From the NCBI GenBank assembly GCA_964449995.1, contig CAYVBW010000001.1:1618-65617 (forward strand): 64,000 nt of DNA, written 5' to 3'. Each line of letters opens with the position of its first letter. Positions within the stretch are counted from its first letter, which is position 1. Source of the DNA: an uncultured Pseudomonadales bacterium (GTDB taxonomy: Bacteria > Patescibacteriota > Microgenomatia > UBA1400 > PJMF01). Shown here piece after piece: positions 1-62,778 of the stretch. The translations under genes were made by a program, and so were the position numbers. The notes beneath the pieces are model-generated. The model worked only from the letters and a program-made list of their open reading frames with translations. It searched no databases and was not told the origin of the DNA.

Positions 1-325
1 ATCCGCCATATTCCGGGTGAGAGTCCTACAACCCCACGTAAAACGTGGTTTGGGCTTTTCCCTGTTCGCTCGTCGCTTACTAAGGGAATCTCTTACGATT
101 TCTTTTCCTCCGGGTACTAAGATATTTCAGTTCCCCGACTTACCTCCGTGCCGTAAACGGCACAGTCGTTTTGCTTTCACAAAACGGGGTTTCCCCATTC
201 GGACACCGACGGGTTAAGCGCTTTTTGCCAGCTAACCGTCGACTATCGCGGGCTATACGTCCTTCATCGGCCAAACAAGCCTAGGCATCCACTTTCTACA
301 TTAGTTCACACAAATATTTGATATT
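1..325 (-). rRNA. rrl: 23S rRNA, 5' domain (partial; gene continues beyond window start)
   Basis: Reverse complement reads ...GTGGATGCCTAGGC...GATGAAGGACGT...CGAATGGGGAAACC...GGGGAACTGAAATATCTTAGTACCCGGAGGAAAAGAAATC, i.e. universally conserved 23S 5'-domain blocks; exact 5' end (~310-330) approximate. Confidence 0.85.
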
Positions 326-484
326 GAATTGAAATTGAACTATTTTGACGATGTTATCTTCACATGTTAAAGAGCGATGCTACTTTTTATATATTTTTCG
401 CTCTGGCGGCGCTTTGCGCCGAGATCGCTCAAAATATTAAAAAGATAGCTTTAATTTAGTAACTTTTTTAAAAAAGTTACCTTG

Positions 485-558
485 TGGACCTGGGGAGATT
501 CGAACTCCCGATCTCTTCGTTGCAAACGAAGCGCTTTAGCCAACTAAGCCACAGGCCC
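485..558 (-). tRNA. tRNA-Ala (anticodon UGC)
   Basis: Reverse complement GGGCCTGTGGCTTAGTTGGCTAAAGCGCTTCGTTTGCAACGAAGAGATCGGGAGTTCGAATCTCCCCAGGTCCA folds as cloverleaf; G3:U70 Ala identity pair; anticodon loop TTTGCAA; sits in the spacer position 5' of 23S on the same strand; no encoded CCA. Confidence 0.85.
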
Positions 559-1402: not shown

Positions 1403-4400
1403 ATGGCTAGCAAAAAGAAGAATATTTCCTATATTTTAAATAAAGTAGTTAAAGGTATTTTGTCTATAGCTAACTATATAGGGACTGCCTTTATACAAGT
1501 AGTATTGTGGATAGCTGAAGTTATTTGGTGGATAATAAAAAGCTTAGTAATGCTAATAGTAGCTTTGCCTAGTTTATTTAAGAAAAATAAAAGTAATAGA
1601 ACTGTATTTAAAAAGGCTTCTTCTAGATCAAGGACTGCCAATCCTTTGCTCAAGCCCTTTGCTGATAAAGATATGAGAAGAAAACTCTTGCCTGGACTGG
1701 TGGTAGTATTACTATTTTTAGTAGGCTTTGCAGTTTATAGCCTAAGACAAGCACAGGAAACAGAAGCACACTGGTGGGATGAGACGTGGCTTTATAGGAG
1801 GGCGATTCAAATTAGCAATGATAATGGGGAGGATTTAGAAGACTTTCAAGTAGCTATAACCCTAGATACAGCTGCACTAATAGCTGAGGGGAAAATGCAA
1901 GCAACCTGTGATGATTTAAGGATAACTGATGGAAATGGTAATTTAACCCCTTATTGGGTTCAGTCAAATCCTGGCTGTGATGATGAAAATACCCTTGTTT
2001 GGATAAAATTACCTATTATTTATGATGGTGAAGGTAATACTACTATCTATCTTTACTACGGCAATGCTTCTGCTGAAACCAAGAGTAATAATTCATGGAT
2101 GCCTACAGGAGGCACAATAACAGAATTAACTGATGGATTAGTTCATGCTTTTACTGAAGATGATTCTTTTGAAACACAAACCAACCTAATGGCTGATGTG
2201 TTAGTGGTAGCGGGGGGTGGGGGTGGAGGGAAAAGACACGGAGGAGGTGGAGGTGCAGGAGGATTGGTTTATGAAAATAATTATAGTATTTCTATTGGAA
2301 ATCATACTATGACTGTTGGTGGAGGTGGGGCAGGCGCTGGTCCAGGCTCTAGTCCGACATCAGCAGAAAACGGTGAAAATTCAGAAGCATTTAATTTAAT
2401 CGCTATAGGCGGTGGAGGTGGGGGTTCCTACAATGCTGATGGAGGGGGTACTTCTGCAGAAAACCTTGCTGGAAGCGACGGAGGGTCTGGTGGTGGTGGG
2501 GCCACAAATTCCGGATTCGGTGGATCTGGTACTCCTAACCAAGGAAATGATGGAGGAACTCCAGATACCTCATCTTGGCCAGGAGCTGGTGGAGGTGGAG
2601 CTGGAAGCGCAGGCGAGCCCAACTCTGGAATTACAGGTGGTAGCGGCGGTAGTGGATTATATTTTGGAAACATTTTTGGGGATAGTTTTGGAGAAAACGG
2701 ATTTTTTTCAGGAGGAGGCGGTGGAGCGGCAGGTGGAACCTCTGCAGACAATAACGGTCAAGGTGGTGTGGGAGGGGGGGCTGATGGCTCTGAAGGAGAT
2801 TTACAAGGCAAAGATGGTCAAGTCAATACTGGTGGAGGCGGAGGTGGAGTCAGATCATCATCTTCAGTGGCAAGTATTACTGGAGGAAACGGCGGTTCCG
2901 GGATTGTTTTAATGAAATATCCTACTGAGGACACTCCAAGTATAGAAACAATAGCTACAGAAGAAATCTCCCCCGGCCCGGTGGCGTATTGGAAATTTGA
3001 TGAGGGAACGGGAACAACAGCACATGATTCTAGTGGGCAAGGGAATAATGGAACGCTAATAAATAGTCCCACTTGGCAAACAGAAGACATGTGTGTAGCT
3101 GGGAAATGTTTGAAGTTTGATAGAGCTTCTAGTAATTATATCTCTAATACAACTGGGATAACTCTTCAAAATGATTTCAGTTATTCTGCTTGGGTAAAAA
3201 CTGATGAATCAATAAACGCGATAAGGGGTATTGTTAGCAACCACCATCATCCCAATCCTTGCTATGGCGCATCTTTAAATTTACACGGCTCGCGCTTCAG
3301 GCTTTATGTTGGTGATGGAATGGACAATAGACCAAATTTCACTTTTGGACCCAATATTGAGATTAACCAATGGTATTATGTATCTGTGGTGTACGATAGT
3401 GGCACTTTTCATTTTTACGTAAACGGCACTAAAACAAACGAAACTTGGACAACAACAGTAGCGCAAAACAGCACCAATTTTGTAATAGGAAGATGGGCCC
3501 CTTCTTATGGAGATTACTACTTTAACGGCCTCATCGATGAAGTCAAAGTCTATCCCTACGCCCGCACCGCTGAACAAATCAAAGATGACTACGCTGCTGG
3601 CATAGCTGGTATTGGAGCAGCCAAAGGTACCACCGCCCTATTTGGCAGCACTAAAGCTGATTTTAAACCTACAGACATAACTGGTAATGTTTTGTGGCTA
3701 GACGCCACCGCTATTTTTGAATTAAACGATAACGATTTAGTCGAAATTTGGCACGATCAAAGTGGAAGTGGTAATCACGCTACACAGTCAGTAACAGAAA
3801 ATCAGCCTGCCTATAAAACTAATGTCGTTGAAAACAAGCCAGCAATTAAATTCAACACTAATAAAGTTCTATCTTTACCAACCGAAATTATTCATGATAT
3901 ACCTGGCGCCTCAGTATTTACTGTTGTGAAATACGAAAGTCTTGGTTCTTCAGACAAAACTGTTTTGTATGCTGACAGAAGCGGAAGCGGAACAGGTGGT
4001 CCTATTGTTATTCGAACAAATACTAATAGTAAATATAACCTTGGTAGCCGCAGACGTTCAGGAGAAACTTTCCATAATGCTCTTTCGAGTAATGACGCCA
4101 CCACAAATTGGGGTATGCAAGTAGGCATTTTTGACTACCTTAACAGATCAATGATGCAATTCATTAATGGGACTCTTGATGGAGAAGTCTCAACTGCTTG
4201 GGGAGACCCTGATTTAAATAGTACTTTTACAGACACAAACAGAAGATTTGACTTAGGAGCTAGAGGAACAACTCTTTTTCTTGAGGGCTATATTGCCGAA
4301 ATCATCATTTACAACACCTCTCTTTCTGAACATGATCGACAAAGAGTTGAGGGTTATTTATCACATAAATGGGGATTATCCGAAGATTTACCCATCGAAC

Positions 4401-6538
4401 ATCCTTATAAAAACTCGCATCCTCAAAGTGCAGCCACTAGATTGCGAGATCCAGTTGCCTACTGGCGTTTTGATGAGGGGTATGGAACAACTACGCATGA
4501 TTCTGTTGGAAACAATCATGGATCATTAAGTGGCACAACATTGCCCGAATGGATAAACGAAGGAAAAATTGGGAAAGCTTTGGCTTTTGATGGAGATTAT
4601 ACTGATTGGCAAGACCATCATATCCATACTAACTTTAGTCAAATTACAGATTATCCTTTTACAATAACTGTTTGGGCAAAAAACCATAGCCCAAATGATA
4701 CAAGAATTGCGATCTCATTATATAGAAGTGCTACTCAATATTTTTCTTTAGGGGCTTCCTCTGGAAAATGGACTATACAGGCCAGAAACACTTCTAATAG
4801 GTCCACTAATTCTTCCGTTAACGCAACACAAGACTGGACATTTTTGGTTGCTGTCTTTAATTCTTCAACACACAGGGAGCTCTACGTGAACGGAGCAAAG
4901 GAAGGAGAGGATAGTCAAGAGGTTCCTTACACAGACCCCACATCAATTTACATTGGAAAACAAAGGCCCGTAGCAGTTGATTATGGCCATGGACCTTTGG
5001 CCTGGGATGGCCTTATCGACGAAGTCAAAATTTACAACGTTGCCCTCAGCCCAGAAGAAATCCTCCAAGACTACAATCAAGGTGCTGCCGCCGTCATGGG
5101 TGCTATGGGCACCGACGACTCCGGCAATCCCACTCAAACCGCCTCTGCCGAGTACTGCATTCCCGGCGACAGTTCCCACTGTGCTCCGCCGGTAGCAAGA
5201 TGGGATTTTGAAGAAGGAAGTGGAACAACTACCCATGATAGAAGTGGAAATAACAATCATGGGACATTAGTTAACAATCCCACTTGGATGACCGGAAAGG
5301 TGGGAAAGGCGTTGGGGTTTGATGGAAGCGACAGCTACATTAACTCTGGGATAGACGAAAGCTTACAAATTCAAGATGAGATTACAATATCTGCTTGGAT
5401 AAAAATAAAAGGAGATAGTGGGGGTAGTTATTCTGGTATTGTATCAAATACTCCTGCCTCATCTCAATTTAATTATCTACTAGGAATTAAGGACCAAAAC
5501 GATAACCCAGTTGCATCTTTCCAGCATAGTAGTGTAGAAAGGCTAGCTCATTCTCAATCTCTTGAAAGAAATAAGTGGTATTTTTTAACAATGGTAGTGG
5601 ATAGTTCTCACATACATCTTTATGTAAATGGTAGTAATCCAGAATCAATATCTAAAGGGAGCACTAATTATACATGGAACGATACCATTATTGGAACTTT
5701 CAGAACTAATTATTTTAACGGCATCATCGACCAAGTCCGCATTTACGACTACGCCCGCACGCCTGCTCAAATCGCCTGGGATTATAATCGCGGCGCTCCA
5801 GTTGGCCACTGGAAGTTTGACGAATGCCAAGGCACAACTGCTCACGATGCTTCCGGCAACGAAAACCATGGGACAATAAATATTGGAGCTACTGGCTCCC
5901 AGACCTCTGCCGGCACCTGTGCTTCGGGTAATTCCGCTCATGCCTGGTATAACGGCAGAGAGGGACGGATAAACAGTGCTATGAGTTTTGATGGAGCGGA
6001 TGATTATGTGGATTTAGGAGTTGAAACATTCAGCTACATTAATAATCGAAACCCCGTTTCTGTCCTTGCTTGGGTAAATACAACAAATAGAGAACAAAGC
6101 TTCGCCGGAATTTTTTCAAAATCCCAAGGAGGTTCTACTACAGCAGTGAGGTTTGACCTTCATTATTATTTTGCAGGAGAAGTTCTTCATCTGCGACAAA
6201 GCATTGGCGACGGATCGAGTACGACTAGTTTGGCCAGAGATATAAATTGGGTGAATAATAACGAGTGGCATTTAGTCGGCATGACATGGAATGGGGAAAG
6301 TATGAAATTATTTTTAGATGGTAAACAATTAGGCAATTCTGCAACTATCAACCTAGATATTGGACTGTCAACTGCTAGTTGGAAAATTGGCAGAGCTTTT
6401 AATTCTTCGTCTTATTCTTTCCCAGGCCTCATCGACGACGTTCGCATCTATAACTACGCCCTCACTGAATATCAAATCAAGCTCCTCCACAACGAAGGAG
6501 CAGCAGTTAGATTCAGCAACCAATTTCCCTTTCCCTAA
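1403..6538 (+). CDS. giant (1711 aa) membrane-anchored surface protein: N-terminal TM helices, DUF2341-like domain, ~330-aa Gly-rich low-complexity region, then at least five LamG/Laminin_G_3 (concanavalin A-like lectin) repeats
   Basis: Two N-terminal hydrophobic helices; WWDETWLYRRAIQI...DFQV...YYGNASA resembles DUF2341; repeated module starts VAYWKFDEGTGTTAHDSSGQGNNGTL / VAYWRFDEGYGTTTHDSVGNNHGSL / VARWDFEEGSGTTTHDRSGNNNHGTL / VGHWKFDECQGTTAHDASGNENHGTI and module ends GLIDEVKVYPYARTAEQI / IDEVKIYNVALSPEEI / IDQVRIYDYARTPAQI / IDDVRIYNYALTEYQI typical of Laminin_G_3. Confidence 0.7.
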   Translation: MASKKKNISYILNKVVKGILSIANYIGTAFIQVVLWIAEVIWWIIKSLVMLIVALPSLFKKNKSNRTVFKKASSRSRTANPLLKPFADKDMRRKLLPGLVVVLLFLVGFAVYSLRQAQETEAHWWDETWLYRRAIQISNDNGEDLEDFQVAITLDTAALIAEGKMQATCDDLRITDGNGNLTPYWVQSNPGCDDENTLVWIKLPIIYDGEGNTTIYLYYGNASAETKSNNSWMPTGGTITELTDGLVHAFTEDDSFETQTNLMADVLVVAGGGGGGKRHGGGGGAGGLVYENNYSISIGNHTMTVGGGGAGAGPGSSPTSAENGENSEAFNLIAIGGGGGGSYNADGGGTSAENLAGSDGGSGGGGATNSGFGGSGTPNQGNDGGTPDTSSWPGAGGGGAGSAGEPNSGITGGSGGSGLYFGNIFGDSFGENGFFSGGGGGAAGGTSADNNGQGGVGGGADGSEGDLQGKDGQVNTGGGGGGVRSSSSVASITGGNGGSGIVLMKYPTEDTPSIETIATEEISPGPVAYWKFDEGTGTTAHDSSGQGNNGTLINSPTWQTEDMCVAGKCLKFDRASSNYISNTTGITLQNDFSYSAWVKTDESINAIRGIVSNHHHPNPCYGASLNLHGSRFRLYVGDGMDNRPNFTFGPNIEINQWYYVSVVYDSGTFHFYVNGTKTNETWTTTVAQNSTNFVIGRWAPSYGDYYFNGLIDEVKVYPYARTAEQIKDDYAAGIAGIGAAKGTTALFGSTKADFKPTDITGNVLWLDATAIFELNDNDLVEIWHDQSGSGNHATQSVTENQPAYKTNVVENKPAIKFNTNKVLSLPTEIIHDIPGASVFTVVKYESLGSSDKTVLYADRSGSGTGGPIVIRTNTNSKYNLGSRRRSGETFHNALSSNDATTNWGMQVGIFDYLNRSMMQFINGTLDGEVSTAWGDPDLNSTFTDTNRRFDLGARGTTLFLEGYIAEIIIYNTSLSEHDRQRVEGYLSHKWGLSEDLPIEHPYKNSHPQSAATRLRDPVAYWRFDEGYGTTTHDSVGNNHGSLSGTTLPEWINEGKIGKALAFDGDYTDWQDHHIHTNFSQITDYPFTITVWAKNHSPNDTRIAISLYRSATQYFSLGASSGKWTIQARNTSNRSTNSSVNATQDWTFLVAVFNSSTHRELYVNGAKEGEDSQEVPYTDPTSIYIGKQRPVAVDYGHGPLAWDGLIDEVKIYNVALSPEEILQDYNQGAAAVMGAMGTDDSGNPTQTASAEYCIPGDSSHCAPPVARWDFEEGSGTTTHDRSGNNNHGTLVNNPTWMTGKVGKALGFDGSDSYINSGIDESLQIQDEITISAWIKIKGDSGGSYSGIVSNTPASSQFNYLLGIKDQNDNPVASFQHSSVERLAHSQSLERNKWYFLTMVVDSSHIHLYVNGSNPESISKGSTNYTWNDTIIGTFRTNYFNGIIDQVRIYDYARTPAQIAWDYNRGAPVGHWKFDECQGTTAHDASGNENHGTINIGATGSQTSAGTCASGNSAHAWYNGREGRINSAMSFDGADDYVDLGVETFSYINNRNPVSVLAWVNTTNREQSFAGIFSKSQGGSTTAVRFDLHYYFAGEVLHLRQSIGDGSSTTSLARDINWVNNNEWHLVGMTWNGESMKLFLDGKQLGNSATINLDIGLSTASWKIGRAFNSSSYSFPGLIDDVRIYNYALTEYQIKLLHNEGAAVRFSNQFPFP

Positions 6539-8230: not shown

Positions 8231-9766
8231 CTATTTATACCCCATGGGCACTTCGGTCAGCACTAAGCTCAAACTCATGCGTCGTTTCTCAGGATCCACA
8301 CTGTCTACATTAACCGTCACCTCATCACCAACCTTTAGCTTGTTTTCAGGACTTAATTTACTAACGTGAATTAAGCCATCTACGCCTGGTAAAACATCCA
8401 CAAAAGCTCCAAAAGGCTCTACTCTAGAAATCTTCCCGGTAAAAGTTGTGCCTGGAGGATAGTCTTCAGCTACTTTTTGCCAAGGATCCTTTTTCAAGCG
8501 TTTTATAGATAAATTAAGCTTGCCTGATTTTTGATCAATGCCCAACACTTTAACCAGCACTCTATCCCCAACCCGGTGGTAGTTTTTGGGGTGATCAACT
8601 TTTTCCCAACTAATTTCTGAGATATGAATTAGACCCTCAACATAACCAATGCTCTCCGAAGGTAGACTATCTTTGGAGCGATGCTCGGGTTTGAGTTCTC
8701 CTTCTTCTACTTTTTCACTCAAATCACTGCCGTCAATTGGCACCTCTACAGTCATAAACAAGCCAAAACCCTTAACTCCTGAAATCACGCCCTCATAAAC
8801 ATTGCCTTCTTTAACTGCTGATAATGCCTGTTGCTGTTGGTTGAGCTGTTTTTCCTCGCTGACATGTCTTTCTGAAAAAATCAGGCGGTTGCGTTCCCGA
8901 TCAACCTCAATAGCGCGTACTTCAAACTTTTTATCCTTTAGGTCATCAATATGATCCAAATAACGCCTGCTGAATTGACTGGAAGGTACAAAACCTCTCA
9001 CTCCATTAACTACAGCAATTAAGCCACCTTTGTTAGCTTCAATTCCCTTAGCCTCTAAAGTGACTTCGTTATTAAATGCATCTTCAAAAAATTCCCACTT
9101 GGCATCATTGGCGGCACCTTTAAGACTTAAAAGAATTTGACCTCGGTTGTTTTCAACTGAAATAACTGTTGCTTCAATTTTGTCATCTACCTCCAATTCT
9201 TGAATATAATCTTGAGCAAAATCAAATTCCTGCTCAGCAATGACTCCAAAACTTTTGGCATTGATATCTAGCTTAACCATTTTGTCAGTCTTCTCTACGA
9301 TCACACCCTCAATTTTTTTCCCTACCTGAGGGACAACTGACTCATAACCAGTCATTTCCATTAATTCCTCCATAGTTTGAGGCTTAGGTCCTGATCTTGC
9401 TTGTTGGGTTAGTGAATCTTCTTTAGAAGTTTGAGAAGCATTAGAAGATTTAGCGGTCTTTGTTTCTTTTTTGTCTTTAGTAGGTTTCTTTTCTGCTTGC
9501 TTGGGTGATTTTTTTTCTTTAGCAGCAGCTTTTTTATCAGACTTTTTTTCAGTTTTAGAACTAGAACTCTTAGCAGTTTTTTTTACTTCTTGTTCCTTAG
9601 TAGACTTTTTTTTACCTGTGGCTGCTTTTTTTTGAGTTTTTTTAGTTTGTTTTTTTGAGCTGGCTGATGTTTTTTTGTCTATCTTTTTTGTTTCTTTATC
9701 TTTATCAGTTTGTTTTTGTTTAGCCTGAGCTTGTTTTTTTTCTGTTGTTTTGCTTTTTATGGCCAT
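8231..9766 (-). CDS. rpsA: 30S ribosomal protein S1-like (multiple S1 domains) with a ~130-aa lysine-rich low-complexity N-terminal extension
   Basis: Repeated S1-domain signatures (GVIVEKTDKMVKLDINAKSFGVI; GNVYEGVISGVKGFGLFMTV; GTTFTGKISRVEPFGAFVDV; GDRVLVKVLGIDQKSGKLNLSIK); N-terminus K/T/S-rich. Confidence 0.7.
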   Translation of the reverse strand: MAIKSKTTEKKQAQAKQKQTDKDKETKKIDKKTSASSKKQTKKTQKKAATGKKKSTKEQEVKKTAKSSSSKTEKKSDKKAAAKEKKSPKQAEKKPTKDKKETKTAKSSNASQTSKEDSLTQQARSGPKPQTMEELMEMTGYESVVPQVGKKIEGVIVEKTDKMVKLDINAKSFGVIAEQEFDFAQDYIQELEVDDKIEATVISVENNRGQILLSLKGAANDAKWEFFEDAFNNEVTLEAKGIEANKGGLIAVVNGVRGFVPSSQFSRRYLDHIDDLKDKKFEVRAIEVDRERNRLIFSERHVSEEKQLNQQQQALSAVKEGNVYEGVISGVKGFGLFMTVEVPIDGSDLSEKVEEGELKPEHRSKDSLPSESIGYVEGLIHISEISWEKVDHPKNYHRVGDRVLVKVLGIDQKSGKLNLSIKRLKKDPWQKVAEDYPPGTTFTGKISRVEPFGAFVDVLPGVDGLIHVSKLSPENKLKVGDEVTVNVDSVDPEKRRMSLSLVLTEVPMGYK

Positions 9767-13757: not shown

Positions 13758-13864
13758 GCAAAAACATCTTCTTTGAATTTTTTTGGATTGAGCTTAATAA
13801 ATTTTCCACTTAAGCATATTCTAAAACCACTTGGTTGAATGATATAATAATCACTCACAATACC

Positions 13865-13938
13865 GCGCGCGTAGCTCAATTGGTTAGAGCACCAAGCTTA
13901 TACCTTGGCGGTTCTTGGTTCGAGTCCAAGCGCGCGCA
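13865..13938 (+). tRNA. tRNA with anticodon UAU (Ile-type, AUA decoding)
   Basis: GCGCGCGTAGCTCAATTGGTTAGAGCACCAAGCTTATACCTTGGCGGTTCTTGGTTCGAGTCCAAGCGCGCGCA; 7-bp acceptor stem, GTTCGAGTC T-loop, anticodon loop CTTATAC. Confidence 0.75.
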
Positions 13939-13980
13939 CTATCTATATAATAAAAGAATACTATTGTTATTAAAAAACGT

Positions 13981-28652: not shown

Positions 28653-30440
28653 CTAGCCAATTTTTATGCTTTCTAACTCTTTTACCGATGTGGCCTGTTC
28701 CCAATTTTTATCATCTCTAAACTTAACTAGTCTTGGGAAACGCAAAGCCCTGCCTGCACTATGTAGTGGAGAAACTGTTAACTCATCTGCAGCAATCTCT
28801 ACCACAATTTTAGGAGACACCCAGACATCTGGCTGCAAATCTTTAGGAACATCATACTGCAGAGGTTTTTTTGAAACTTGATATTTATCAGCCTCTTTTT
28901 TAATATACTTAAACTCTTCGTCTGTTAAACCAGTGCCAATTTTAGCAATAGTCTTTAGTTTTTTTTGAGAGGATAACACACCAACTAAAAAAGCCCCAAT
29001 CCCAAATTGACTGCGCTTGCCTTTACCGCGATAGTAACCCATCACCACACAATCCAGGGTATCGCTGAGCTTACCCAATGTCCCCTCACTCTCTTTAATC
29101 TTTACCCAACGCCAACCTTTACGACCAGAACGATACTTAGAATCAATTCTTTTTATAACAGCCCCCTCTAACCCCTTTTCAAGTTGTTGTTCATGATATT
29201 GTTGAATTTCGCCAGGATCTTGAGTTTCAACTACCTCTGTAAGCTTAATTATTCCATTAATCTCAACCACGTTTTGCAAAATTTTTTTTCGATTATTTAA
29301 AGGCTCATCTATTAGTGGCTCATTATTCAAATAAAGAATATCAAACACATAAAACATTAAAGGCACCTTTTCTGACTGACTAACAACTTGATGCTTACGT
29401 TTTCTAGTAATAGTTTCCTGAAAAGTTAGCAGTTTTTTAGATTTAGGATCATAGGCAATTGCCTCAGCATCTAAAATACAATTTTGAGCCTGGATTTGGT
29501 CAATCTCTTCTAAAATCTCAGGAAACATATGGGTAACATTGTCTAAATTTCGAGTAAAAATTTGAACAGGTTTTTCCTTATCAGCTTTATTAATGTGAAT
29601 TTGGACCCTAAGCCCATCATATTTTGGCTCTATTATCACTCTGCCCATTTTTTCTACTATTTCATGCGCAGTATTAAGGCGTTGACACAAAGCGGGCATG
29701 ACAGGAATTCCCAGCGCAACTTGATAATTATCAAAAAAATCTTTAACCTCTGTTTTTGAGCTACGTTGTAAATATTCCTGAGCCAGCTGTCCAATATCAG
29801 CTCTTTTCTGATAAGCCGCTTCAATCTTCTTGCTGTCGCTTTTATTCTGATGCCTAACCCAGGACAAAGCATCAATTATGGTCATTGTTGAAAAGCCCAA
29901 GCGCAGCTTACCCACAATTATTCTGACCACAAATTTAATTGAAGCTGGCTGTAAATTTAACAGCAATTCATAGGTCTTGTTAATTTTTCTATCCTGGGAA
30001 CCTTCTCCTTCCTCATCTGCTATGTCTACCAAAATTTTGTGAACTTCTAAAATGAGCAAGTCTTTACCTAACAATTGAGTATTTTCTAGCAATTGTTCTA
30101 TAGCTAATCCCAAATCTCCTAAATCCTTATTAGCTTTTTTTATTTTTTCCAAATAAAGAGAGTCGTCTTGTTCTTTAAACAAATTAATACTAGGTAAAGA
30201 ATCATCTTGATCCAAGTGATTAAGTAGTTTGGCCAACGCCCTCATGGTTAACTTCTCACTCATATTAAACTCTAAAGATTGATAGCTTGGCACTAACTTC
30301 CCCTGCATTAAGTAACAAACTACAGGAATTTCCTCAGTTTTGAGTTCCTGAAAAAGTTGTGCCAACTGCGCAGTCATTTCCAAACGGGAAGCGGTGACTT
30401 CTAGCTTTTCCAAGTATTGAGCGAAGGTTAAAAATTTCAT
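28653..30440 (-). CDS. ATP-dependent DNA ligase
   Basis: Adenylation motif I KYDGLRVQIH (KxDGxR), motif III/IV/V region EGAVIK, OB-fold C-terminus; 595 aa. Confidence 0.85.
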   Translation of the reverse strand: MKFLTFAQYLEKLEVTASRLEMTAQLAQLFQELKTEEIPVVCYLMQGKLVPSYQSLEFNMSEKLTMRALAKLLNHLDQDDSLPSINLFKEQDDSLYLEKIKKANKDLGDLGLAIEQLLENTQLLGKDLLILEVHKILVDIADEEGEGSQDRKINKTYELLLNLQPASIKFVVRIIVGKLRLGFSTMTIIDALSWVRHQNKSDSKKIEAAYQKRADIGQLAQEYLQRSSKTEVKDFFDNYQVALGIPVMPALCQRLNTAHEIVEKMGRVIIEPKYDGLRVQIHINKADKEKPVQIFTRNLDNVTHMFPEILEEIDQIQAQNCILDAEAIAYDPKSKKLLTFQETITRKRKHQVVSQSEKVPLMFYVFDILYLNNEPLIDEPLNNRKKILQNVVEINGIIKLTEVVETQDPGEIQQYHEQQLEKGLEGAVIKRIDSKYRSGRKGWRWVKIKESEGTLGKLSDTLDCVVMGYYRGKGKRSQFGIGAFLVGVLSSQKKLKTIAKIGTGLTDEEFKYIKKEADKYQVSKKPLQYDVPKDLQPDVWVSPKIVVEIAADELTVSPLHSAGRALRFPRLVKFRDDKNWEQATSVKELESIKIG

Positions 30441-36748: not shown

Positions 36749-37333
36749 ATGAAAAAAATACCTCTTTTTTTTAAAAAAATCACACAAAACTATTCAAAGC
36801 TTTTCCTAATAGTTTTTGCACTACTATTATTTTTTTCCTCTAAGTTGTTGGTAAATGACACATTTGCTTCTGGTAATAATTGTCACTGTGTATGTGATGC
36901 GAGAGGGCGTGATTGTTCTTGGATGGGCCCAGATTGCGGATACTACCAAGGTCGTCTTTGTGAGGCGGGTGATGTGTTTGGAGAGAGTATTTTTGGCACA
37001 ATTCAGCCCCCTGCAGGAGTAAGAGAAATTCAAGAAGAAGTGGGGGCTGGAAACATTGGCATTATTTTATTTGCATCAAACCTAGTAAGACTAGTAACTG
37101 TGGCTGCAGGCATTTGGGTTATGTTTAATTTTATCTCAGCCGGGTGGATTTATATCACATCAGGCGGAGATGCCTCAGCTCACGAAAAAGTATCTGAGAA
37201 AATAACCCAGAGTCTTATAGGCTTAGCCATAGTGGCACTAGCTTATACTATTGCCGGACTTATCGGTCTTTTGATTTTTGGAGATGCCAGCTTTATTCTT
37301 AGGCCCACCTTAACCGGGGTTGGCCAATTTTAA
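36749..37333 (+). CDS. pilin-like two-TM protein, paralog 2 (signal peptide + Cys-rich N-terminal ectodomain)
   Basis: Signal peptide; CHCVCDARGRDCSWMGPDCGYYQGRLCE; core WIYITSGGDASAHEKVSEKITQSLIGLAIVALAY. Confidence 0.55.
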   Translation: MKKIPLFFKKITQNYSKLFLIVFALLLFFSSKLLVNDTFASGNNCHCVCDARGRDCSWMGPDCGYYQGRLCEAGDVFGESIFGTIQPPAGVREIQEEVGAGNIGIILFASNLVRLVTVAAGIWVMFNFISAGWIYITSGGDASAHEKVSEKITQSLIGLAIVALAYTIAGLIGLLIFGDASFILRPTLTGVGQF

Positions 37334-37344
37334 ATTAACAACTT

Positions 37345-37743
37345 ATGAATATATTTTTAAAAATTCTTAATTATTCAGTGTCATTTTCTAGTCAATTTGG
37401 TAATGGATTTCAGCCACCCACAGATGTCTATACCCAAGGCGCTGACGACAGTGGGGAGGTGGTAAATATCTTGACTAATTTTCTTTCTAATTTAATTGGT
37501 CTTCTAACAATCTTTGGGGCTCTGTTTTTCATTGTTAACTTTTTCTTAGGAGCCCTTGCTTGGATTTCAGCTGGTGATGACTCGGGTAAAGTGGAAAAAG
37601 CGAGAACAAAAATAATGCATGGAGTGTTGGGGCTGATTATAATCGTCCTTGCTTATTCAATTATCGGACTTATTGGACAAATTATTGGCATTGACTTAAT
37701 TAATTTAGGAGAAACAATAGAGCAGGTTGTACCAACTTTATAA
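37345..37743 (+). CDS. pilin-like two-TM protein, paralog 3
   Basis: Core LAWISAGDDSGKVEKARTKIMHGVLGLIIIVLAY. Confidence 0.55.
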   Translation: MNIFLKILNYSVSFSSQFGNGFQPPTDVYTQGADDSGEVVNILTNFLSNLIGLLTIFGALFFIVNFFLGALAWISAGDDSGKVEKARTKIMHGVLGLIIIVLAYSIIGLIGQIIGIDLINLGETIEQVVPTL

Positions 37744-37781
37744 AAATGTAAAATTTAAATAATGCTTAATAATATACAAAT

Positions 37782-38216
37782 ATGACACAACACTTTTCTA
37801 TTTTAAATAAATTAATTACCAAACCAATCCAAGCAAGCAATGGCAGGCTTTTTAATCCCGTTATTGGAAGGTTAGGAGATGACCCTGACGCAGCCAGCAC
37901 AGGTAATTTGTTTTTAACTTATGCTATTCATCTGTGGAGAATAGCAATTAATATCGGAGCCTTAATAGTTTTGGCTTTTTACATAGTTGCCGCCTATGAG
38001 TGGCTAACCAGCGGCAGCGACACTCAAGGAGTTGAAAAAGCGCGCAAAAGATTTGTGAACGCCACCATTGGTTTGATTTTATTGGTGGGGTCTTTTGCCA
38101 TCATAGCCTTTATCAGCAATTTATTGTTTGGTGAAGACTTTAATTTACTACACTTAACCTTCCCAGTTGGCCAAAGCACAGCGCCAACAACACCAATTCA
38201 TAATACTGGGATATAA
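37782..38216 (+). CDS. pilin-like two-TM protein, paralog 4
   Basis: Core YEWLTSGSDTQGVEKARKRFVNATIGLILLVGSF. Confidence 0.55.
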   Translation: MTQHFSILNKLITKPIQASNGRLFNPVIGRLGDDPDAASTGNLFLTYAIHLWRIAINIGALIVLAFYIVAAYEWLTSGSDTQGVEKARKRFVNATIGLILLVGSFAIIAFISNLLFGEDFNLLHLTFPVGQSTAPTTPIHNTGI

Positions 38217-38260
38217 CTAAAAAATCAGCTTAATTTTTTCAAAAAAAAGAAAAAAATAAC

Positions 38261-38635
38261 ATGACAAGCAAAACCACAAACTCATTAGCCTCAATTGAGT
38301 TTGATATCGGTCAAGAAGGCAGAGAACAACTCCCTTTTGGTGAAACTGTGGTCACAGAAGGTGGTGGAGCCAGCGCTGTTTCCAGCTTCATCAGCAACTT
38401 ATTAAGAATAAGCATTGTTGTTGCTGCCCTCATTCTTCTCTTTAATTTAATTTTTGCCGGTTTTGAATGGCTTTCTTCTGGAGGAGATAGCAGTAAAATT
38501 GAAAAAGCGCGCACCAGAATGACTCAGTCAATTATTGGCTTTGTAATACTATTTGCCGTAATTGCTATCTTTACTTTCATCCAAGATTTACTTGGGATAA
38601 ACGTTATTACCTTTACCACTGAAGGTGGTGGTTAA
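38261..38635 (+). CDS. pilin-like two-TM protein, paralog 5
   Basis: Core FEWLSSGGDSSKIEKARTRMTQSIIGFVILFAVI. Confidence 0.55.
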   Translation: MTSKTTNSLASIEFDIGQEGREQLPFGETVVTEGGGASAVSSFISNLLRISIVVAALILLFNLIFAGFEWLSSGGDSSKIEKARTRMTQSIIGFVILFAVIAIFTFIQDLLGINVITFTTEGGG

Positions 38636-38807
38636 CCCATTCCGCCTCCAGAGGGTGGGGGTGGAGGAGAAGTAAGACCTCCAGTATATAAATTTTAAAT
38701 AAATTTAAAATAGAAATTAAAAGCCCTATTTTGACATTTATTTTAAAAACCTGATACAATATCAACAACAATTATCAATAATCATCAAATTAATTAAAGG
38801 AGAAAAA

Positions 38808-39209
38808 ATGAATAAAATTAAACAAATTGCTATAGGAGCCGGATCAGCCATTAGCGGAGCGTTGCTGACCGTCAATCCAGTTTTGGCTCAAGAAACCGAA
38901 GTTAAGGTTGAAGTACCCGATGCCTTTGATATAAGTGTGGGCGATCTTTTAACAACTCTTTTGAATTTAGTTTTAGTCATAGCTGCAATTTTGGTTTTTG
39001 CCTACTTGATTTGGGGTGGAATTGAGTGGATTACCTCTGGTGGTGATAAGAGCAAAACAGAGTCAGCCAGAAATAAAATCACAGCTGCCATTGTAGGGCT
39101 GGTGGTTTTGGTTGCCTCCTATGCCATCTTGCAATTAGTCTTGCAAATCCTTGGGATTCAAGGTGGGTTTGAGGGTATGCTTAACTTTGCTACCATAGGT
39201 GCAAAATAA
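38808..39209 (+). CDS. pilin-like two-TM protein, paralog 6 (clear Sec signal peptide ...VLAQE)
   Basis: Strong RBS-like AAAGGAGAAAAA upstream; core IEWITSGGDKSKTESARNKITAAIVGLVVLVASY. Confidence 0.6.
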   Translation: MNKIKQIAIGAGSAISGALLTVNPVLAQETEVKVEVPDAFDISVGDLLTTLLNLVLVIAAILVFAYLIWGGIEWITSGGDKSKTESARNKITAAIVGLVVLVASYAILQLVLQILGIQGGFEGMLNFATIGAK

Positions 39210-39233
39210 TGTCCTTTTAAATAAGCACACAAC

Positions 39234-39266
39234 AAAAAAAACCCTCTGTTAAAGAGGGTTTTTTAA
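39234..39266 (+). terminator. rho-independent terminator after pilin paralog 6
   Basis: AAAAAAACCCTCTGTTAAAGAGGGTTTTTT: 7-bp GC-containing stem, 5-nt loop, T-run. Confidence 0.7.
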
Positions 39267-39354
39267 TAAATTACAGCCGACTTTCCCATTTTTGCTTAAA
39301 AAATAATATAATAAGTCATTAATAAATAATTTGATACATCAGCACTCCTAATTT

Positions 39355-39807
39355 ATGAAAAAAATCATTAAATTTATTAAAATCTTTTGTTTTTTTGCTA
39401 TTATTTTTTTTGTCAGCACCAACAAAACCTTTGCCCAAACCAGAGTTTGGGAAAGTATTAATCAACATTGTGTTGTTGATGGCGTTGCCACTATCCAGGG
39501 TGTATCTTGCTTGATTGCTAATGTTTTATCAGTTGCTCTCACAGTCATTGGTCTGGCTGGATTCATCATGCTAATAGTTGGCTCCTTAAAATGGCTCTTG
39601 TCAGGAGGCAGCTCTCAAAATGTAGACAGCGCTAAAAAAACCATGACTTATGCCGTGGTTGGACTGGTAGTAGCGCTTAGCTCATTTATGATAATCAATC
39701 TAATTGCTCAGTTTACTGGAGTCAATGTTATTACTGAGTTCTTTATTCCTGGAAGCGATACCGGTCTTGAGGGAGGTCCACAATGGGAAGATGTGGGTCG
39801 ACTGTAG
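39355..39807 (+). CDS. pilin-like two-TM protein, paralog 7 (signal peptide, two Cys in ectodomain)
   Basis: Signal peptide ...TFAQT; core LKWLLSGGSSQNVDSAKKTMTYAVVGLVVALSSF. Confidence 0.55.
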   Translation: MKKIIKFIKIFCFFAIIFFVSTNKTFAQTRVWESINQHCVVDGVATIQGVSCLIANVLSVALTVIGLAGFIMLIVGSLKWLLSGGSSQNVDSAKKTMTYAVVGLVVALSSFMIINLIAQFTGVNVITEFFIPGSDTGLEGGPQWEDVGRL

Positions 39808-39856: not shown

Positions 39857-40555
39857 CTACTTTCCAAACCTGCGAATTCTTCCTTGATAGTCTTTTAGTG
39901 CCTTGTCCAACTCCTTGATATCAAAATCAGGCATTAGTACTTTTGTAAAATACAACTCTGAATAAACACTTTGCCAAGGCATAAAGCCTGACAATCTTTG
40001 CTCCCCACCGGTCCTAATTATTAAATCCGGATCAGGAATTCCCTTAGTATCCAAGTATTGCTCAAGCTCATCCGCCCCCAACTGCTCAAGACTCAGTCCA
40101 GCAGCAACCGCCTGCCTAACTGCTCTTACTATCTCATCCCTGCCCCCATAGTTTAAGGCAAAGGTGACAGTAATTTTATAATCTTTTTTATTAATTTCTT
40201 TAAACCGATTAACACTTTCTTGAATATCCTGAGGAAACCGACTCAAATCACCAATTGTTTTCACCCTCACCTTCTCTTTTACCATCTCATCAAAGCCCTC
40301 ACTAAAAGAGAGACGCATCAAGTCCATAATTGCCTCAACCTCAGCCTTATCTCTTTGCCAATTCTCAGTACTAAAAGCCCACAAAGTTAAAAAAGGAATC
40401 CCCAGAGAAATGCAGTGTCGAGTAAGATCTTCAATATTTTCTCGAGCAACTTTCTCATGACCCTTAAAAATCTTAAGCTTGTTTTGTCTAGCCCAACGGC
40501 GATTACCATCCATAATAATAGCGATGTGTTGAGGAAGAGAATTGGTCTTTTTCAT
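39857..40555 (-). CDS. uppS: undecaprenyl/isoprenyl diphosphate synthase (cis-prenyltransferase)
   Basis: HIAIIMDGNRRWA catalytic motif, RTGGEQRLSGF C-terminal motif. Confidence 0.9.
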   Translation of the reverse strand: MKKTNSLPQHIAIIMDGNRRWARQNKLKIFKGHEKVARENIEDLTRHCISLGIPFLTLWAFSTENWQRDKAEVEAIMDLMRLSFSEGFDEMVKEKVRVKTIGDLSRFPQDIQESVNRFKEINKKDYKITVTFALNYGGRDEIVRAVRQAVAAGLSLEQLGADELEQYLDTKGIPDPDLIIRTGGEQRLSGFMPWQSVYSELYFTKVLMPDFDIKELDKALKDYQGRIRRFGK

Positions 40556-40566
40556 AATTTAAAGGC

Positions 40567-41364
40567 TTAAGCTGTTATTTTAGTACCCTTAACTGACTTG
40601 CCACCAATAGCATCAGATAAAGTACCATGAACAATTCCGTCAATAATTAGGCCAGGAATGCCTTGTTTTGCTAATAACAAAGTCTCCTCGACTTTATGCA
40701 ACATACCTCCTGTTACATCTGTCCCGCCTGACCCACCCAAATTTTGGCGGTATTGTCCAATATTCTTACCATTGATTTCTTTAATAGTTTTACCATCAGC
40801 ATCATAAACTCCACTTGTTTGCCCACATTGAATAATTTGTTCAACACGATAATCCTTGGCTTTTAAAGCCAGTCCCAAATACGCAAGCACTTTCTCAGTA
40901 GAAAAAATTGTGCATCCCATCTTTTCATCCAGGATTTGATCGCCATATACAACTGGCAGTAAGCCTTGGGTCAAAAGCAACTCAATCGATTTGGTAAAAA
41001 TATCTGACAGCTTGTGCTCACTAGCCACCATACTGCTTAGAGGAGAAACAGAAACCGCATTAATCTTTTCTTTTAAAAATTTTTTTATCACAATGCGATT
41101 TAGCCTTGCTGCCACGTCTGACACTTCAGCAATCCCGCGATAACTCTGTTTATTAATAATTCCCTTGTGGGTTTGATATTTTTTTGCTGGCACATGTGCA
41201 AAAGAGCCCGCACCATGACCAATTATTAACAATTTCCCCATATTAACAGCTTTTTTTACCTCTGAGGCAATAATATCCAAAGCTTCTTCGTTTACAGTAA
41301 AGGGCTTGTTTTTGTCTGTAATAAGGGAGCCCCCGATTTTAATTAAGATTATTGGTTTATGCAT
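40567..41364 (-). CDS. isopentenyl phosphate kinase (amino-acid-kinase fold)
   Basis: IILIKIGGSLITDK N-terminal glycine-rich AAK motif, HGAGSFAH, C-terminal GGM region; genomic context inside mevalonate operon. Confidence 0.65.
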   Translation of the reverse strand: MHKPIILIKIGGSLITDKNKPFTVNEEALDIIASEVKKAVNMGKLLIIGHGAGSFAHVPAKKYQTHKGIINKQSYRGIAEVSDVAARLNRIVIKKFLKEKINAVSVSPLSSMVASEHKLSDIFTKSIELLLTQGLLPVVYGDQILDEKMGCTIFSTEKVLAYLGLALKAKDYRVEQIIQCGQTSGVYDADGKTIKEINGKNIGQYRQNLGGSGGTDVTGGMLHKVEETLLLAKQGIPGLIIDGIVHGTLSDAIGGKSVKGTKITA

Positions 41365-41908
41365 AGTTTGCCAAATTTTGTTTGATATTTTTTTGTGACA
41401 AGATAATACTCACCCATGGGGCAAAATTGCTCGCTGCTGTTAATAGTTGCTTAAATTGAATCCACCCAACCTCAGACACCTCATCTGGATTTGGCTTAAG
41501 CTCCCCCTTAAAATCCCCAACAAAAACTGTGTCTATTTCATTCTCACTAAAGCCATTGTCAAAACTTACTTGGTATTGAAACTTACCAACTTTACTCAAC
41601 CCTACCCCCTCAATACCTAACTCCTCTTTTAATCGGCGCTTAGCACAATCTAAGTAACTTTCGCCAGGCCGAACATTTCCGCATGCAGTGTTAGCCCACT
41701 GATTGGCTGCCACTATTTTTTTCTTACTTCGTTTTTGAATTAGAACTTCACCTGTAGCATTAAACAAAAAAACACTGCAGGCTCGATGTAATTTACCTAA
41801 GCCCTTATGCGTCTCAATAACATTTTCTGACCCAATCACCTCATCATCTGCATTAACTAGCACAACCCGATCAAGCTTTTGATAAATTTTATTGTTTGTG
41901 CTGTTCAT
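41357..41908 (-). CDS. idi: isopentenyl-diphosphate delta-isomerase, type 1 (Nudix fold)
   Basis: HRACSVFLFN...NTACGNVRPGESYLDCAKRRLKEELGI contains catalytic Cys and Nudix-like GE...RR..EELG box. Confidence 0.7.
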   Translation of the reverse strand: MNSTNNKIYQKLDRVVLVNADDEVIGSENVIETHKGLGKLHRACSVFLFNATGEVLIQKRSKKKIVAANQWANTACGNVRPGESYLDCAKRRLKEELGIEGVGLSKVGKFQYQVSFDNGFSENEIDTVFVGDFKGELKPNPDEVSEVGWIQFKQLLTAASNFAPWVSIILSQKNIKQNLANYA

Positions 41909-41948
41909 AATTTTTAAAACCGCCCCTATTTAACAAGGCTAAAAAAAC

Positions 41949-42245
41949 TCATGCTTGCTTAACTTTTTTTACTTTAAGCTGATATTCTAATGGATCAGAA
42001 TCATTTTTTTTAGAACCTTTTCTTAACACACACCTAACCTTATCCCCTATCTCCAGCCTTTGATGACCAACTCCCATTAACTCTTTCCTATTTTTCCCAA
42101 AGGCTACAATTGCCAAAGAATAGGGAGCCGCCCTCAAGTGCTCACTGCCAGCAACCCTAATATAGGTGCTTACCACAACCTGTCCAGTTTTGCCCAAAAA
42201 ACTCTTCCATTGTTTATTGAGTCTTGTGTATTTAGCCGGATGCAT
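41949..42245 (-). CDS. DUF35-family OB-fold protein (thiolase/HMG-CoA synthase scaffold partner)
   Basis: 98-aa OB-fold-sized ORF immediately downstream of thiolase and HMGCS as in archaeal thiolase/HMGCS/DUF35 complexes. Confidence 0.55.
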   Translation of the reverse strand: MHPAKYTRLNKQWKSFLGKTGQVVVSTYIRVAGSEHLRAAPYSLAIVAFGKNRKELMGVGHQRLEIGDKVRCVLRKGSKKNDSDPLEYQLKVKKVKQA

Positions 42246-42281
42246 AATTTTATTTTATATTAATTGAATAATATTAAATTG

Positions 42282-43388
42282 CTAGCCAACTACATGAACT
42301 ACAGCTGTAGCTCCAGATCCTCCCACGTTATGGGCCAAGCCTAATTTATAACGCTCATCCTCAATTTGCTGAGCTAAATAAACAACCTGTTTGATGCCGG
42401 TAGCACCGATTGGATGACCAAATGCTTTTAAACCACCTGATAAGTTAATCACAACTTTTCCATTCAATTTTGTTTCGTGGTTGAGCGTAGCCCGACCACC
42501 CATTCCTTTGTCAAAAAAACCCAAGTCCTCGATCGCCAAAATCTCTGCAATAGTAAAACAATCGTGAACCTCTGCCAACTGTATTTGATCTGGCCTAACA
42601 TCAGCCATCTGATAAGACTTTTGTGCTGCTTGCACCGTTGCTCTCAAGGTAGTTAAATCTTTTCTACTAGCTAAGTCCAAAGCATCTTGAGCATGACCAA
42701 AACCTAAAATTTTGGGCTTATTTTTCATCTTGCGGCCTGTTAGTATCACAGCTGAAGCCCCGTCTGAAATTGGCGAGCAATCTAGCAATCTAAGAGGATC
42801 TGCCACTAAAGGACTTTGTGAGACTTGATCTAAAGTAAATTCTCGATGAAATTGAGCCAAAGGGTTCTCCAAGGCATGTGTGTGATTTTTTACAGCTACA
42901 GCAGACAGCATTTCCCTAGATGTTTTAAACTTTTCTGTATGCACTTGGGCCAGTAAGGCATACAAGCCAGGGAAAGTTGAGCCATTTTCAGCATCATGAT
43001 TAGCTGCCATAGCAAGAATTCGGGTGGCATTGCTCGCAGTTGTATCTGTCATCTTTTCGGCCCCAACTACCAAAGCAGTTTGACAATACCCTGACAAAAT
43101 CGCCTGTTCTGCAGCCAATAAAGCCAACCCCCCAGAAGCGCAAGCTCCCTCCACTCTCATGCTGGGAGGAAAATGATTAAAAAACTGACTTACCAAAGCA
43201 TTGAGATGAAGTTGATTGTTAAATTCTCCAGGGGCTTTGCTGGCAACAAAAACTTGGTCTATTTGTCTAGAATCAATACCAGCATTTTTAACAGAACCCC
43301 CAATTGCTTCTTGAAACAAATCAGCCAACCCTTTTTCCCAGAGTTCTCCGACCTTAGTTGTATGATGACCCGCAATAGTAATTTGCAT
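42282..43388 (-). CDS. acetyl-CoA C-acetyltransferase (archaeal-type thiolase)
   Basis: Thiolase fold with active-site Cys region VEGACASGGLALL, C-terminal GHPIGATG and NVGGSGA motifs. Confidence 0.8.
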   Translation of the reverse strand: MQITIAGHHTTKVGELWEKGLADLFQEAIGGSVKNAGIDSRQIDQVFVASKAPGEFNNQLHLNALVSQFFNHFPPSMRVEGACASGGLALLAAEQAILSGYCQTALVVGAEKMTDTTASNATRILAMAANHDAENGSTFPGLYALLAQVHTEKFKTSREMLSAVAVKNHTHALENPLAQFHREFTLDQVSQSPLVADPLRLLDCSPISDGASAVILTGRKMKNKPKILGFGHAQDALDLASRKDLTTLRATVQAAQKSYQMADVRPDQIQLAEVHDCFTIAEILAIEDLGFFDKGMGGRATLNHETKLNGKVVINLSGGLKAFGHPIGATGIKQVVYLAQQIEDERYKLGLAHNVGGSGATAVVHVVG

Positions 43389-43413
43389 TGTATTTAACCT
43401 AGCTAAAAACTAA

Positions 43414-44484: not shown

Positions 44485-44544
44485 AATCTTTTAATTTTTA
44501 TTTAATGTATATTTTTTAATAATTTGCTAAAAATTTCCCCAAGC

Positions 44545-55381: not shown

Positions 55382-55717
55382 CTACTTAGTGTTTAAAAGG
55401 CTATCTAGTTGAGTGATAAAGTCAAACTCTTCTTTTTTATCTAATACAAATTCTTTTTTTTTAACCAGCACAAGCAGGTCTGCTGGTCGTCTCGATATAT
55501 TATGTCCTCTAATTAAATTAAAGATATCTCTCCTTATTTTATTTCTATAAACAGCTGACTTAACTGCCTTTGTAGGAACTACAACCGCCGCCTTAAAAAT
55601 TTTTTTGTTTTTTTTGTTGTAGTAAATATCTAGACCATTGGTAAAATTGGTTTTATATTTAAAAATTTCTCGACCTAGCTTTGTTTTTAAATTAAGCCTA
55701 TTTTTTTTAGGCAACAT
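55382..55717 (-). CDS. rnpA: ribonuclease P protein component
   Basis: Basic 111-aa protein (LPKKNRL...RNKIRR) directly downstream of rpmH. Confidence 0.8.
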   Translation of the reverse strand: MLPKKNRLNLKTKLGREIFKYKTNFTNGLDIYYNKKNKKIFKAAVVVPTKAVKSAVYRNKIRRDIFNLIRGHNISRRPADLLVLVKKKEFVLDKKEEFDFITQLDSLLNTK

Positions 55718-57171: not shown

Positions 57172-57514
57172 AATTCATTTATAACTATATGTAATTTATT
57201 TGATGAGTTTGTTTAGTATAGCTTATTTATTTTTTTTATTATTAACAATCTGTTTTTAGTTTATATTTAAATTTAAGTAGTAATAGTAGTAATAGGGTAT
57301 GTGGAAAGGTGTATAAAATCGAATCTTTCTCAAGCAGTTGATTTATTTTGCATGTGATTAATTAGTCTTAAGTTGTTAGTAATGCTGTACATAATTCCTT
57401 AATTAAAGAGAGGATAAGTTTATAAAATTAACATTTAGAAATATTTTTAAAGATTTTATCCATATCTTTTTAACACACTTTTCCACTTTTGTGGAAAAGT
57501 TAGAATTAAGAGTC
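57172..57514. promoter_or_regulatory. candidate oriC segment (dnaA-dnaN intergenic): AT-rich DUE plus DnaA-box-like 9-mers
   Basis: TGTGGAAAG 57300-57308; TTATCCATA 57456-57464; perfect palindrome CTTTTCCAC-TTTT-GTGGAAAAG 57478-57499 (two inverted TTTTCCAC[A/T] boxes); 57181-57300 >85% AT. Confidence 0.6.
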
Positions 57515-62651: not shown

Positions 62652-62778
62652 ACCAAATAGTATAAATCAATTATTGTTGATTAACAAACCAGACTCTAAA
62701 ACTAAAAAACAATTTATAGCTTTTAACTGTTTTCTAAAATAATTTCGCGATAAACAAGAATTCTTAAGCAAATAAAAA

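Follow-up and report, generated by a model that had tools for sequence, protein, structure and literature searches.

We found that a 74-nt gene in the 64,000-nt stretch of DNA analysed here (the window) very probably encodes a functional, chromosomal tRNA-Ile(UAU) that decodes AUA in a Paceibacteria-like bacterium of the Patescibacteria (CPR). According to the textbook, bacteria read AUA by means of lysidine. Our scans suggest that the UAU exception is common in one large uncultured radiation.

The tRNA gene, its relatives and its genomic setting

Running ARAGORN on the window, we obtained two tRNAs, one of which is a tRNA-Ile with the anticodon tat at 13865-13939 (+). Rfam RF00005 matched 13865-13938 (+) with 72.3 bits (E = 7e-14 for the window as a whole), where the gathering score is 29. 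The match covered the model at full length (positions 1-71 of 71), with conserved D and T loops. In the covariance-model alignment, CUUAUAC occupies a 7-nt anticodon loop with UAU at positions 34-36, all 21 stem pairs are Watson-Crick and zero non-canonical pairs were flagged. The earlier note had described a clean tRNA with the loop CTTATAC and the anticodon UAU, and its coordinates proved exact. It had also warned that an intron, an 8-nt loop or another register could give a different anticodon; we looked for all three with ARAGORN and the covariance-model alignment and found none. The acceptor stem is GCGCGCG/CGCGCGC, followed by the D arm (GCUC-AAUUGGUUA-GAGC), the anticodon arm (CCAAG-CUUAUAC-CUUGG), the variable loop (CGGUU), the T arm (CUUGG-UUCGAGU-CCAAG) and the discriminator A73; U8, A9 and A26 are present as read from the sequence. 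The positions of these and other features are given in Table 1.

Table 1. Position, strand and basis of the window features discussed in the text
Feature	Position	Strand	Basis
Giant 1711-aa protein (DUF2341, Gly-rich, repeated Laminin_G_3)	1403-6538
Ribosomal protein S1	8231-9766	-
Putative extended -10 promoter (TGnTATAAT), TGATATAAT	13840-13848	+	Perfect consensus match, read by eye
tRNA-Ile(UAU) gene, 74 nt	13865-13938	+	ARAGORN; Rfam RF00005; sequence
Anticodon loop C32-U33-U34-A35-U36-A37-C38	13897-13903	+	Sequence and covariance-model alignment
Anticodon TAT	13899-13901	+
ATP-dependent DNA ligase	28653-30440
Type IV secretion-like genes, first group	36749-39807
Mevalonate cluster	39857-45852
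ValRS, 749 aa, TTG start	45904-48153
rnpA (RNase P protein), context gene	55382-55717	-	Weak Pfam Ribonuclease_P match on the identical gene in L130/L131
dnaA-dnaN	56053-59047
Type IV secretion-like genes, second group	59279-63801

The tRNA would be transcribed alone from its own extended -10 promoter. The candidate element, TGATATAAT, ends 16 nt before the mature 5′ end, and as a putative promoter it would give RNase P a leader of some 10 nt to remove. A two-hexamer promoter scan reported no promoter at the tRNA gene, because the element has no -35 box. TATAAT boxes occur at a similar distance upstream of the orthologous tRNA in three other loci (L099, L227 and L238). A loose TAnAAT precedes 61 of 117 family members, which is uninformative in AT-rich DNA. 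RNase P would then trim the 5′ end of the transcript, and the RnpA-containing enzyme is the one expected to cut the leader. Since CCA is not encoded in the gene (the bases directly 3′ are CTA), it would be added enzymatically.

Two relatives allowed us to follow the gene over evolutionary distance. In L061, the tRNA is identical at 71 of 74 positions, with A26U and a compensatory change of U51-A63 to A51-U63, and eight genes around it are syntenic at 65-77% amino-acid identity. In L099, 69 of 74 positions are identical; the changes are a compensatory C4-G69 to U4-A69, the 51-63 swap and one T-loop base, and four surrounding genes are syntenic at 41-71% amino-acid identity. In both relatives, the tRNA stays upstream of the same MacA-like/ABC/FtsX genes. 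An identical tRNA gene is present in L134, the sole other assembly of the region scanned for tRNAs, and the adjacent downstream gene was found on 23 contigs from ENA, JGI and Logan samples.

The wider anticodon-arm subfamily, sampled from metagenomes and genomes, gave 107 distinct members. Stem cells were paired, counting standard pairs, in 99.6% of cases across these members, the anticodon stem being fixed by the search pattern and giving no evidence either way on its pairing. Two-sided changes occurred at 11 of the 21 stem pairs, all in the acceptor and T stems, while the D stem, U8, A14 and U12-A23 were invariant. A73 was found in all 104 of the 107 sequences that reach that position. Judged by sequence comparison, this pattern is the signature of purifying selection. 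The gene is real, far beyond chance: its synteny is kept and its substitutions are compensatory.

The window contains the 5′ part of a bacterial 23S rRNA beside tRNA-Ala(UGC), without 16S (Rfam). Its genes include DnaA, DnaN, RecF, ribosomal protein S1, a short ValRS and an ATP-dependent DNA ligase, and many ORFs have no family match. Genes identical to those of the window are found on ENA, JGI and Logan metagenome contigs. The longest of these, the 88-kb ENA contig k141_66061, reaches 16 kb and 8 kb beyond the window and adds tRNA-Ala-23S-5S, LepA, S20 and MurJ; the extensions hold no other tRNA and no tilS. Synteny with L061 and L099, together with this gene content, places the window in the Patescibacteria (CPR), near the Paceibacteria. 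L099 is labelled Candidatus Paceibacterota. L061 (CAZPQG010000006.1) is labelled 'uncultured Pseudomonadales' and yet is syntenic with the CPR-like window, and this label is probably wrong or the bin contaminated. Several 'Gammaproteobacteria' bins of the same submission series also look CPR.

Several further observations concern the surroundings of the gene. The rRNA operon is tRNA-Ala(UGC)-23S-5S, with no 16S or tRNA-Ile(GAU) upstream (window 1-558; L134 5487-9156), and the 16S is therefore unlinked. The 23S extends over 3147 nt, whereas the model has 2925 positions, a difference that points to an insertion. Directly beside the operon lies the gene of the giant protein, probably a surface or adhesion protein. 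The S1 gene is 4 kb from the tRNA, and ftsH is absent from the window. The DNA ligase adjoins peptidyl-tRNA hydrolase and has all three domains (N, adenylation, C). We saw no NAD-dependent LigA in the window. The mevalonate cluster contains archaeal-type enzymes, with UppS, a NUDIX protein, thiolase, HMG-CoA synthase (best match, an archaeal equivalog) and HMG-CoA reductase, and its amino-acid-kinase-family protein is possibly an isopentenyl phosphate kinase. The ValRS covers model positions 2-697 of 860 and ends inside the anticodon-binding domain region, without the usual C-terminal coiled-coil. The type IV secretion-like genes (T4SS pilins, PrgI-like, TraC-like and VirB4/TraG-type ATPase) are found next to dnaA-dnaN. 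Cumulative GC skew has its minimum at about 56 kb, probably the replication origin.

Isoleucine identity and the meaning of AUA

The identity set of E. coli IleRS, reportedly defined by Nureki et al. in 1994, is said to include A73, A35-U36, A37, A38, C4-G69, U12-A23 and C29-G41. The window tRNA has A73, A35-U36, A37, C4-G69 and U12-A23, and it departs from the set at pair 29-41 (A-U, not C-G) and at position 38 (C, not A).

The acceptor stem bears on the choice between Ile and Met. According to Silva et al. (2006, PMC1635315), tRNA-Met and tRNA-fMet carry C3-G70 and can be told from tRNA-Ile by pair 3-70, and C4-G69 is frequent in tRNA-Ile. With G3-C70 and C4-G69, the window tRNA has an Ile-type acceptor stem, not a Met-type one. 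Across 239 tRNA(UAU) genes, pair 3-70 was G-C or A-U in 231 and C4-G69 was found in 160, a discriminator that splits Ile from Met, but not Ile from Val. The 34 tRNA(CAU) genes in the same loci are of Met/fMet types with C3-G70, and the Ile2 signature was absent from all 34. Apart from two odd cases, the few that seem to depart from C3-G70 are register artefacts caused by the 1x72 mismatch of initiator tRNAs. When about 300 neighbouring tRNAs were ranked by raw identity, tRNA-Val bodies came out on top, so this comparison did not single out Ile; it had few tRNA-Ile(GAU) available, all from Planctomycetes arrays, and the 3-70/4-69 discriminator was used instead. A35-U36 is the anticodon determinant of IleRS, and MetRS needs C34 (PMC3575796). 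As overall identity fails to pick Ile, the assignment rests on the anticodon, on the discriminator between Ile and Met and on how AUA codons behave.

Counting codons in 57 window ORFs, we found 297 AUA among 18,496 codons (16.1 per 1000, 21% of Ile codons), roughly the frequency of AUG. This usage falls in the 'high' class of PMC12514573. Aligned with L061 orthologues, window AUA codons face Ile in 16 of 25 positions, and with L099 orthologues in 11 of 21; Met was found in neither. In this small sample, AUA is thus aligned to Ile in 27 of 46 orthologous positions, mostly to AUU or AUC, and the remaining positions hold Leu, Val, Ala, Lys or Gln. In this genome, AUA is among the commonly used codons for Ile. 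The main text of the Codetta paper contains no passage on AUA. The stop codons of the 57 ORFs are TAA (33), TAG (20) and TGA (4), TGA being strikingly rare.

From these features of the sequence, we infer that the window tRNA is charged with Ile, and a tRNA-Ile for AUA, as the earlier note had it, is the best reading given the acceptor stem, A73 and the alignment of AUA with Ile. IleRS would recognise A35, U36, A37, A73, the acceptor stem (G3-C70, C4-G69) and the D stem (U12-A23). On the ribosome, U34 would pair directly with the A of AUA. By analogy with tRNAIle2(UAU) of M. mobile (PMC3575796) and the G34U suppressor of B. subtilis (PMC3919564), U34 is probably unmodified and would read AUG weakly. 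Misreading of AUG would be limited by weak U:G pairing and by competition from tRNA-Met; as a speculation, the C32/C38 loop or lineage-specific ribosome features may help to reject it.

Distribution of the family and the lysidine question

The earlier note called this tRNA rare in bacteria, which holds for cultured genomes. Published surveys report tRNA-Ile(UAU) in 17 genomes with tRNAscan-SE 2.0 (PMC8450103), in 19 species of tRNADB-CE (PMC4013482), and, together with the absence of tilS, in nine species from three clades (PMC3575796). It does not hold for the CPR. Scanning one genome per GTDB species with the pattern AGAGC-N6-CTTATA-N15-GTTCRANTC, we obtained at least 120 tRNA(UAU) genes, a number that shows abundance and enrichment, not frequency. 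ARAGORN called a tRNA with the anticodon tat for every listed match. By the submitters' own taxon labels, 69 of the 120 species-genome matches listed are CPR. Among the matches listed, these comprise 28 Saccharibacteria, Paceibacteria/Parcubacteria lineages, and Kaiser-, Nomura-, Taylor-, Uhr-, Woese-, Levy-, Davies-, Dojka- and Peribacteria and others; the non-CPR ones come from Planctomycetota and Clostridia tRNA arrays, Chloroflexota and a few archaea. Several listed bins labelled 'bacterium' or 'Gammaproteobacteria' look CPR too.

The CUUAUAC loop with C38 was found in 42 of the 69 CPR-labelled matches against 2 of the 28 from other named taxa, among the matches listed, and these other taxa mostly have A38. 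A C32/C38 loop may tune decoding. Searching 241 million metagenome records, we found no match to the CAT version of the exact anticodon arm, against at least 120 matches to the TAT version in the same collection. The family is thus fixed for U34 and does not consist of tRNA(CAU) genes with sporadic mutations. Viral matches to the Y34 pattern were TAT in 3 of 3 cases. Across the CPR, the tRNA-Ile(UAU) genes appear to form a widespread family, fixed for U34 and with its own loop signature, which seems to be undiscussed as such in the literature searched. Taniguchi et al. noted 371 unique metagenomic tDNA-Ile(TAT) sequences of unknown origin (PMC3575796).

Does the family replace the lysidine system? 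Its presence alone does not imply the loss of tilS, since a tRNA-Ile(TAT) gene coexists with tilS in L. casei, L. plantarum, Cyanothece and Ferrimonas (PMC3575796). In six frames of the window, the PP-loop motif SGGxDS had no match, and phmmer with E. coli TilS gave none in the ORFs of the window or of 1.81 Mb of tRNA(UAU) loci. With genomes estimated at about 1 Mb and one copy in each, these 1.81 Mb would be expected to contain only about one or two tilS genes, so this null is not significant. Neither tilS nor a tRNA(CAU) was found in the 88-kb contig, which is a small part of a genome estimated at about 1 Mb. Over all loci, the sole PP-loop matches belong to a QueC-like protein in L227 (5198-6229, -) and L238 (1779-2804, +). 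This protein is divergent, about 340 aa long with a C-terminal Cys cluster, and its gene lies 1-4.6 kb from tRNA-Ile(UAU) in these two related metagenome loci.

Gene order offers a further clue. In many bacteria, tilS-hpt precede ftsH. We found tRNA-Ile(UAU) directly downstream of ftsH on the same strand in nine loci (L107, L127, L129, L142, L181, L190, L194, L210 and L246) and 4 kb from ftsH in L226, making about ten such CPR-type loci in all, often with an S1-domain gene upstream of ftsH. The tilS-hpt-ftsH linkage was not seen in the approximately seven CPR loci with sequence upstream of ftsH, which is no more than suggestive. The literature searched contained no paper joining lysidine with Patescibacteria/CPR, and none joining tilS with CPR names was among the best 40 matches listed.

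We considered whether the gene could be something other than an AUA-reading tRNA-Ile of its host. A pseudogene or a chance tRNA-like sequence has a single point in its favour: the minimum-free-energy fold of the sequence alone is an elongated alternative and not the cloverleaf, so the case for the gene rests on the covariance model and the comparison with relatives. Such folds are common among tRNA sequences and the comparative evidence outweighs this one. With a score far above the gathering value, 21 of 21 Watson-Crick stem pairs, compensatory evolution across 107 relatives, the identical gene in L134 and the recurrence of its downstream neighbour on 23 contigs, we regard this explanation as negligible. 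Very improbable, though less so than a pseudogene, is a tRNA brought in by a phage or mobile element and serving the codon usage of the element rather than of the host. Our scans did find tRNA(UAU) genes in viral contigs and tRNA arrays, and the window has type IV secretion-like genes. However, these lie more than 20 kb from the tRNA, which sits between housekeeping genes (S1, PGK and a MacAB-type transporter) in an arrangement kept in two relatives at 41-77% protein identity, with integrase, repeat and GC shift all absent at the site. Codon reassignments other than AUA occur in some CPR lineages, and a tRNA carrying another amino acid, with AUA reassigned (to Met, for example, as in mitochondria) or read by a suppressor, would have that precedent. 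The alignments, with Ile in 27 of 46 positions and Met in none, speak against it, as do the Ile-type acceptor stem and the A35-U36 determinant of IleRS in a tRNA that lacks the C34 required by MetRS (PMC3575796); we judge it slightly less probable still than a mobile origin. The pseudo or suppressor tRNA that the earlier note had raised as a way to overturn its reading thus came out negative.

A weightier competitor accepts the tRNA-Ile(UAU) and holds that tRNA-Ile2(CAU) and TilS were kept, the UAU tRNA being a parallel second AUA reader. The four published taxa with both systems are a precedent, about 98% of annotated bacterial genomes are reported to have tilS (PMC12514573), and the part of this genome that we inspected amounts to 88 kb. 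Against such redundancy stand the failure of both SGGxDS and phmmer searches to detect tilS in the window, the contig and the 1.81 Mb of loci, the Met/fMet types of all 34 neighbouring tRNA(CAU) genes, without the Ile2 signature, the missing tilS-hpt-ftsH linkage in about seven CPR loci, and the cost that a second system would have in genomes of about 1 Mb. We consider redundancy rather unlikely, and somewhat favour the reading in which tRNA-Ile(UAU) is the sole AUA decoder of this organism, in place of tRNA-Ile2(CAU) and TilS. Only tentatively, and with the balance leaning against it, do we extend this to much of the Patescibacteria/CPR, which might read AUA with an ancestral tRNA-Ile(UAU), mostly of the C32/C38 kind, and have dispensed with TilS and tRNA-Ile2(CAU).

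Significance and comparison with known systems

For this lineage, tRNA-Ile(UAU) is ordinary, and the interest of the single gene is modest. Along with unlinked rRNA genes, archaeal-type mevalonate genes and an ATP-dependent ligase, it is a lineage marker for Patescibacteria. If the CPR dispensed with lysidine, most of the several hundred metagenomic tDNA-Ile(TAT) sequences left unexplained in 2013 would belong to the CPR, and a large share of bacterial diversity would keep U34 off AUG by some other route, the candidates being U34 modification, loop tuning, or adaptation of the ribosome or IleRS. If tilS proves to be missing across the CPR, TilS could not count as a universal bacterial target or marker, Ile(UAU) would be an expected call in the annotation of CPR genomes, and the cultivable Saccharibacteria would be a system in which to learn how U34 avoids AUG.

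The window gene is of a known kind of tRNA, called Ile3 in tRNAscan-SE 2.0 and tRNAIle2(UAU) in M. mobile. Eukaryotic cytosolic tRNA-Ile(UAU) has a pseudouridine-A-pseudouridine anticodon and an intron. It shares its genomic anticodon and its codon with the window tRNA, but as an identity for the latter it was rejected: the intron is absent and the context is bacterial (DnaA, bacterial 23S and 5S rRNA, RnpA). The standard bacterial system, tRNA-Ile2(CAU) converted to lysidine-AU by TilS, does the same job with a similar Ile-type acceptor stem (G3-C70, C4-G69). A lysidine substrate of this type was also rejected as the identity of the window tRNA, whose anticodon is TAT and not CAT and whose arm has no CAT counterpart in the 241 million metagenome records.

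A laboratory parallel exists in B. subtilis, in which a suppressor of the tilS deletion, tRNA-Ile1 G34U, reads AUA strongly and AUG weakly with an unmodified U34 (Kohrer et al. 2013, PMC3919564). It shows that the U34 mechanism operates on an ordinary bacterial ribosome. The suppressor is a mutation of the major tRNA-Ile, whereas the window tRNA belongs to a natural, separately evolving family.

In nature, tRNA-Ile3(UAU) is reported from Bifidobacterium, Neorickettsia and the archaea Nanoarchaeum and Korarchaeum (tRNAscan-SE 2.0 paper, PMC8450103). Bifidobacterium and Neorickettsia combine the UAU tRNA with a eukaryote-type IleRS (PMC3575796); the IleRS of the window organism, in which the residue equivalent to W905 of E. 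coli would be telling, is not encoded on the 88-kb contig, and ValRS is the window's sole class I synthetase. Adaptation of IleRS to U34 would show as Arg or Lys at that residue or as a eukaryote-type enzyme. The Ile3 clades, and probably the window organism, use a UAU tRNA instead of tRNA-Ile2(CAU), a solution that arose independently in several clades.

The closest likeness is with M. mobile. Its tRNAIle2(UAU), like the window tRNA, is bacterial, intron-less and genome-encoded with TAT, and its AT-rich, reduced genome with many AUA codons, read without lysidine, resembles the window (PMC3575796, PMC1635315). In M. mobile, the loss of tilS and tRNA-Ile(CAT), an unmodified U34, the IleRS adaptation Arg865 and ribosome-dependent rejection of AUG have been shown (PMC3575796). 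The CUUAUAC loop with C38 is a feature of the CPR family that differs from M. mobile. While the M. mobile case is an isolated event in the Mollicutes, the window tRNA belongs to a large, old family that extends across CPR classes.
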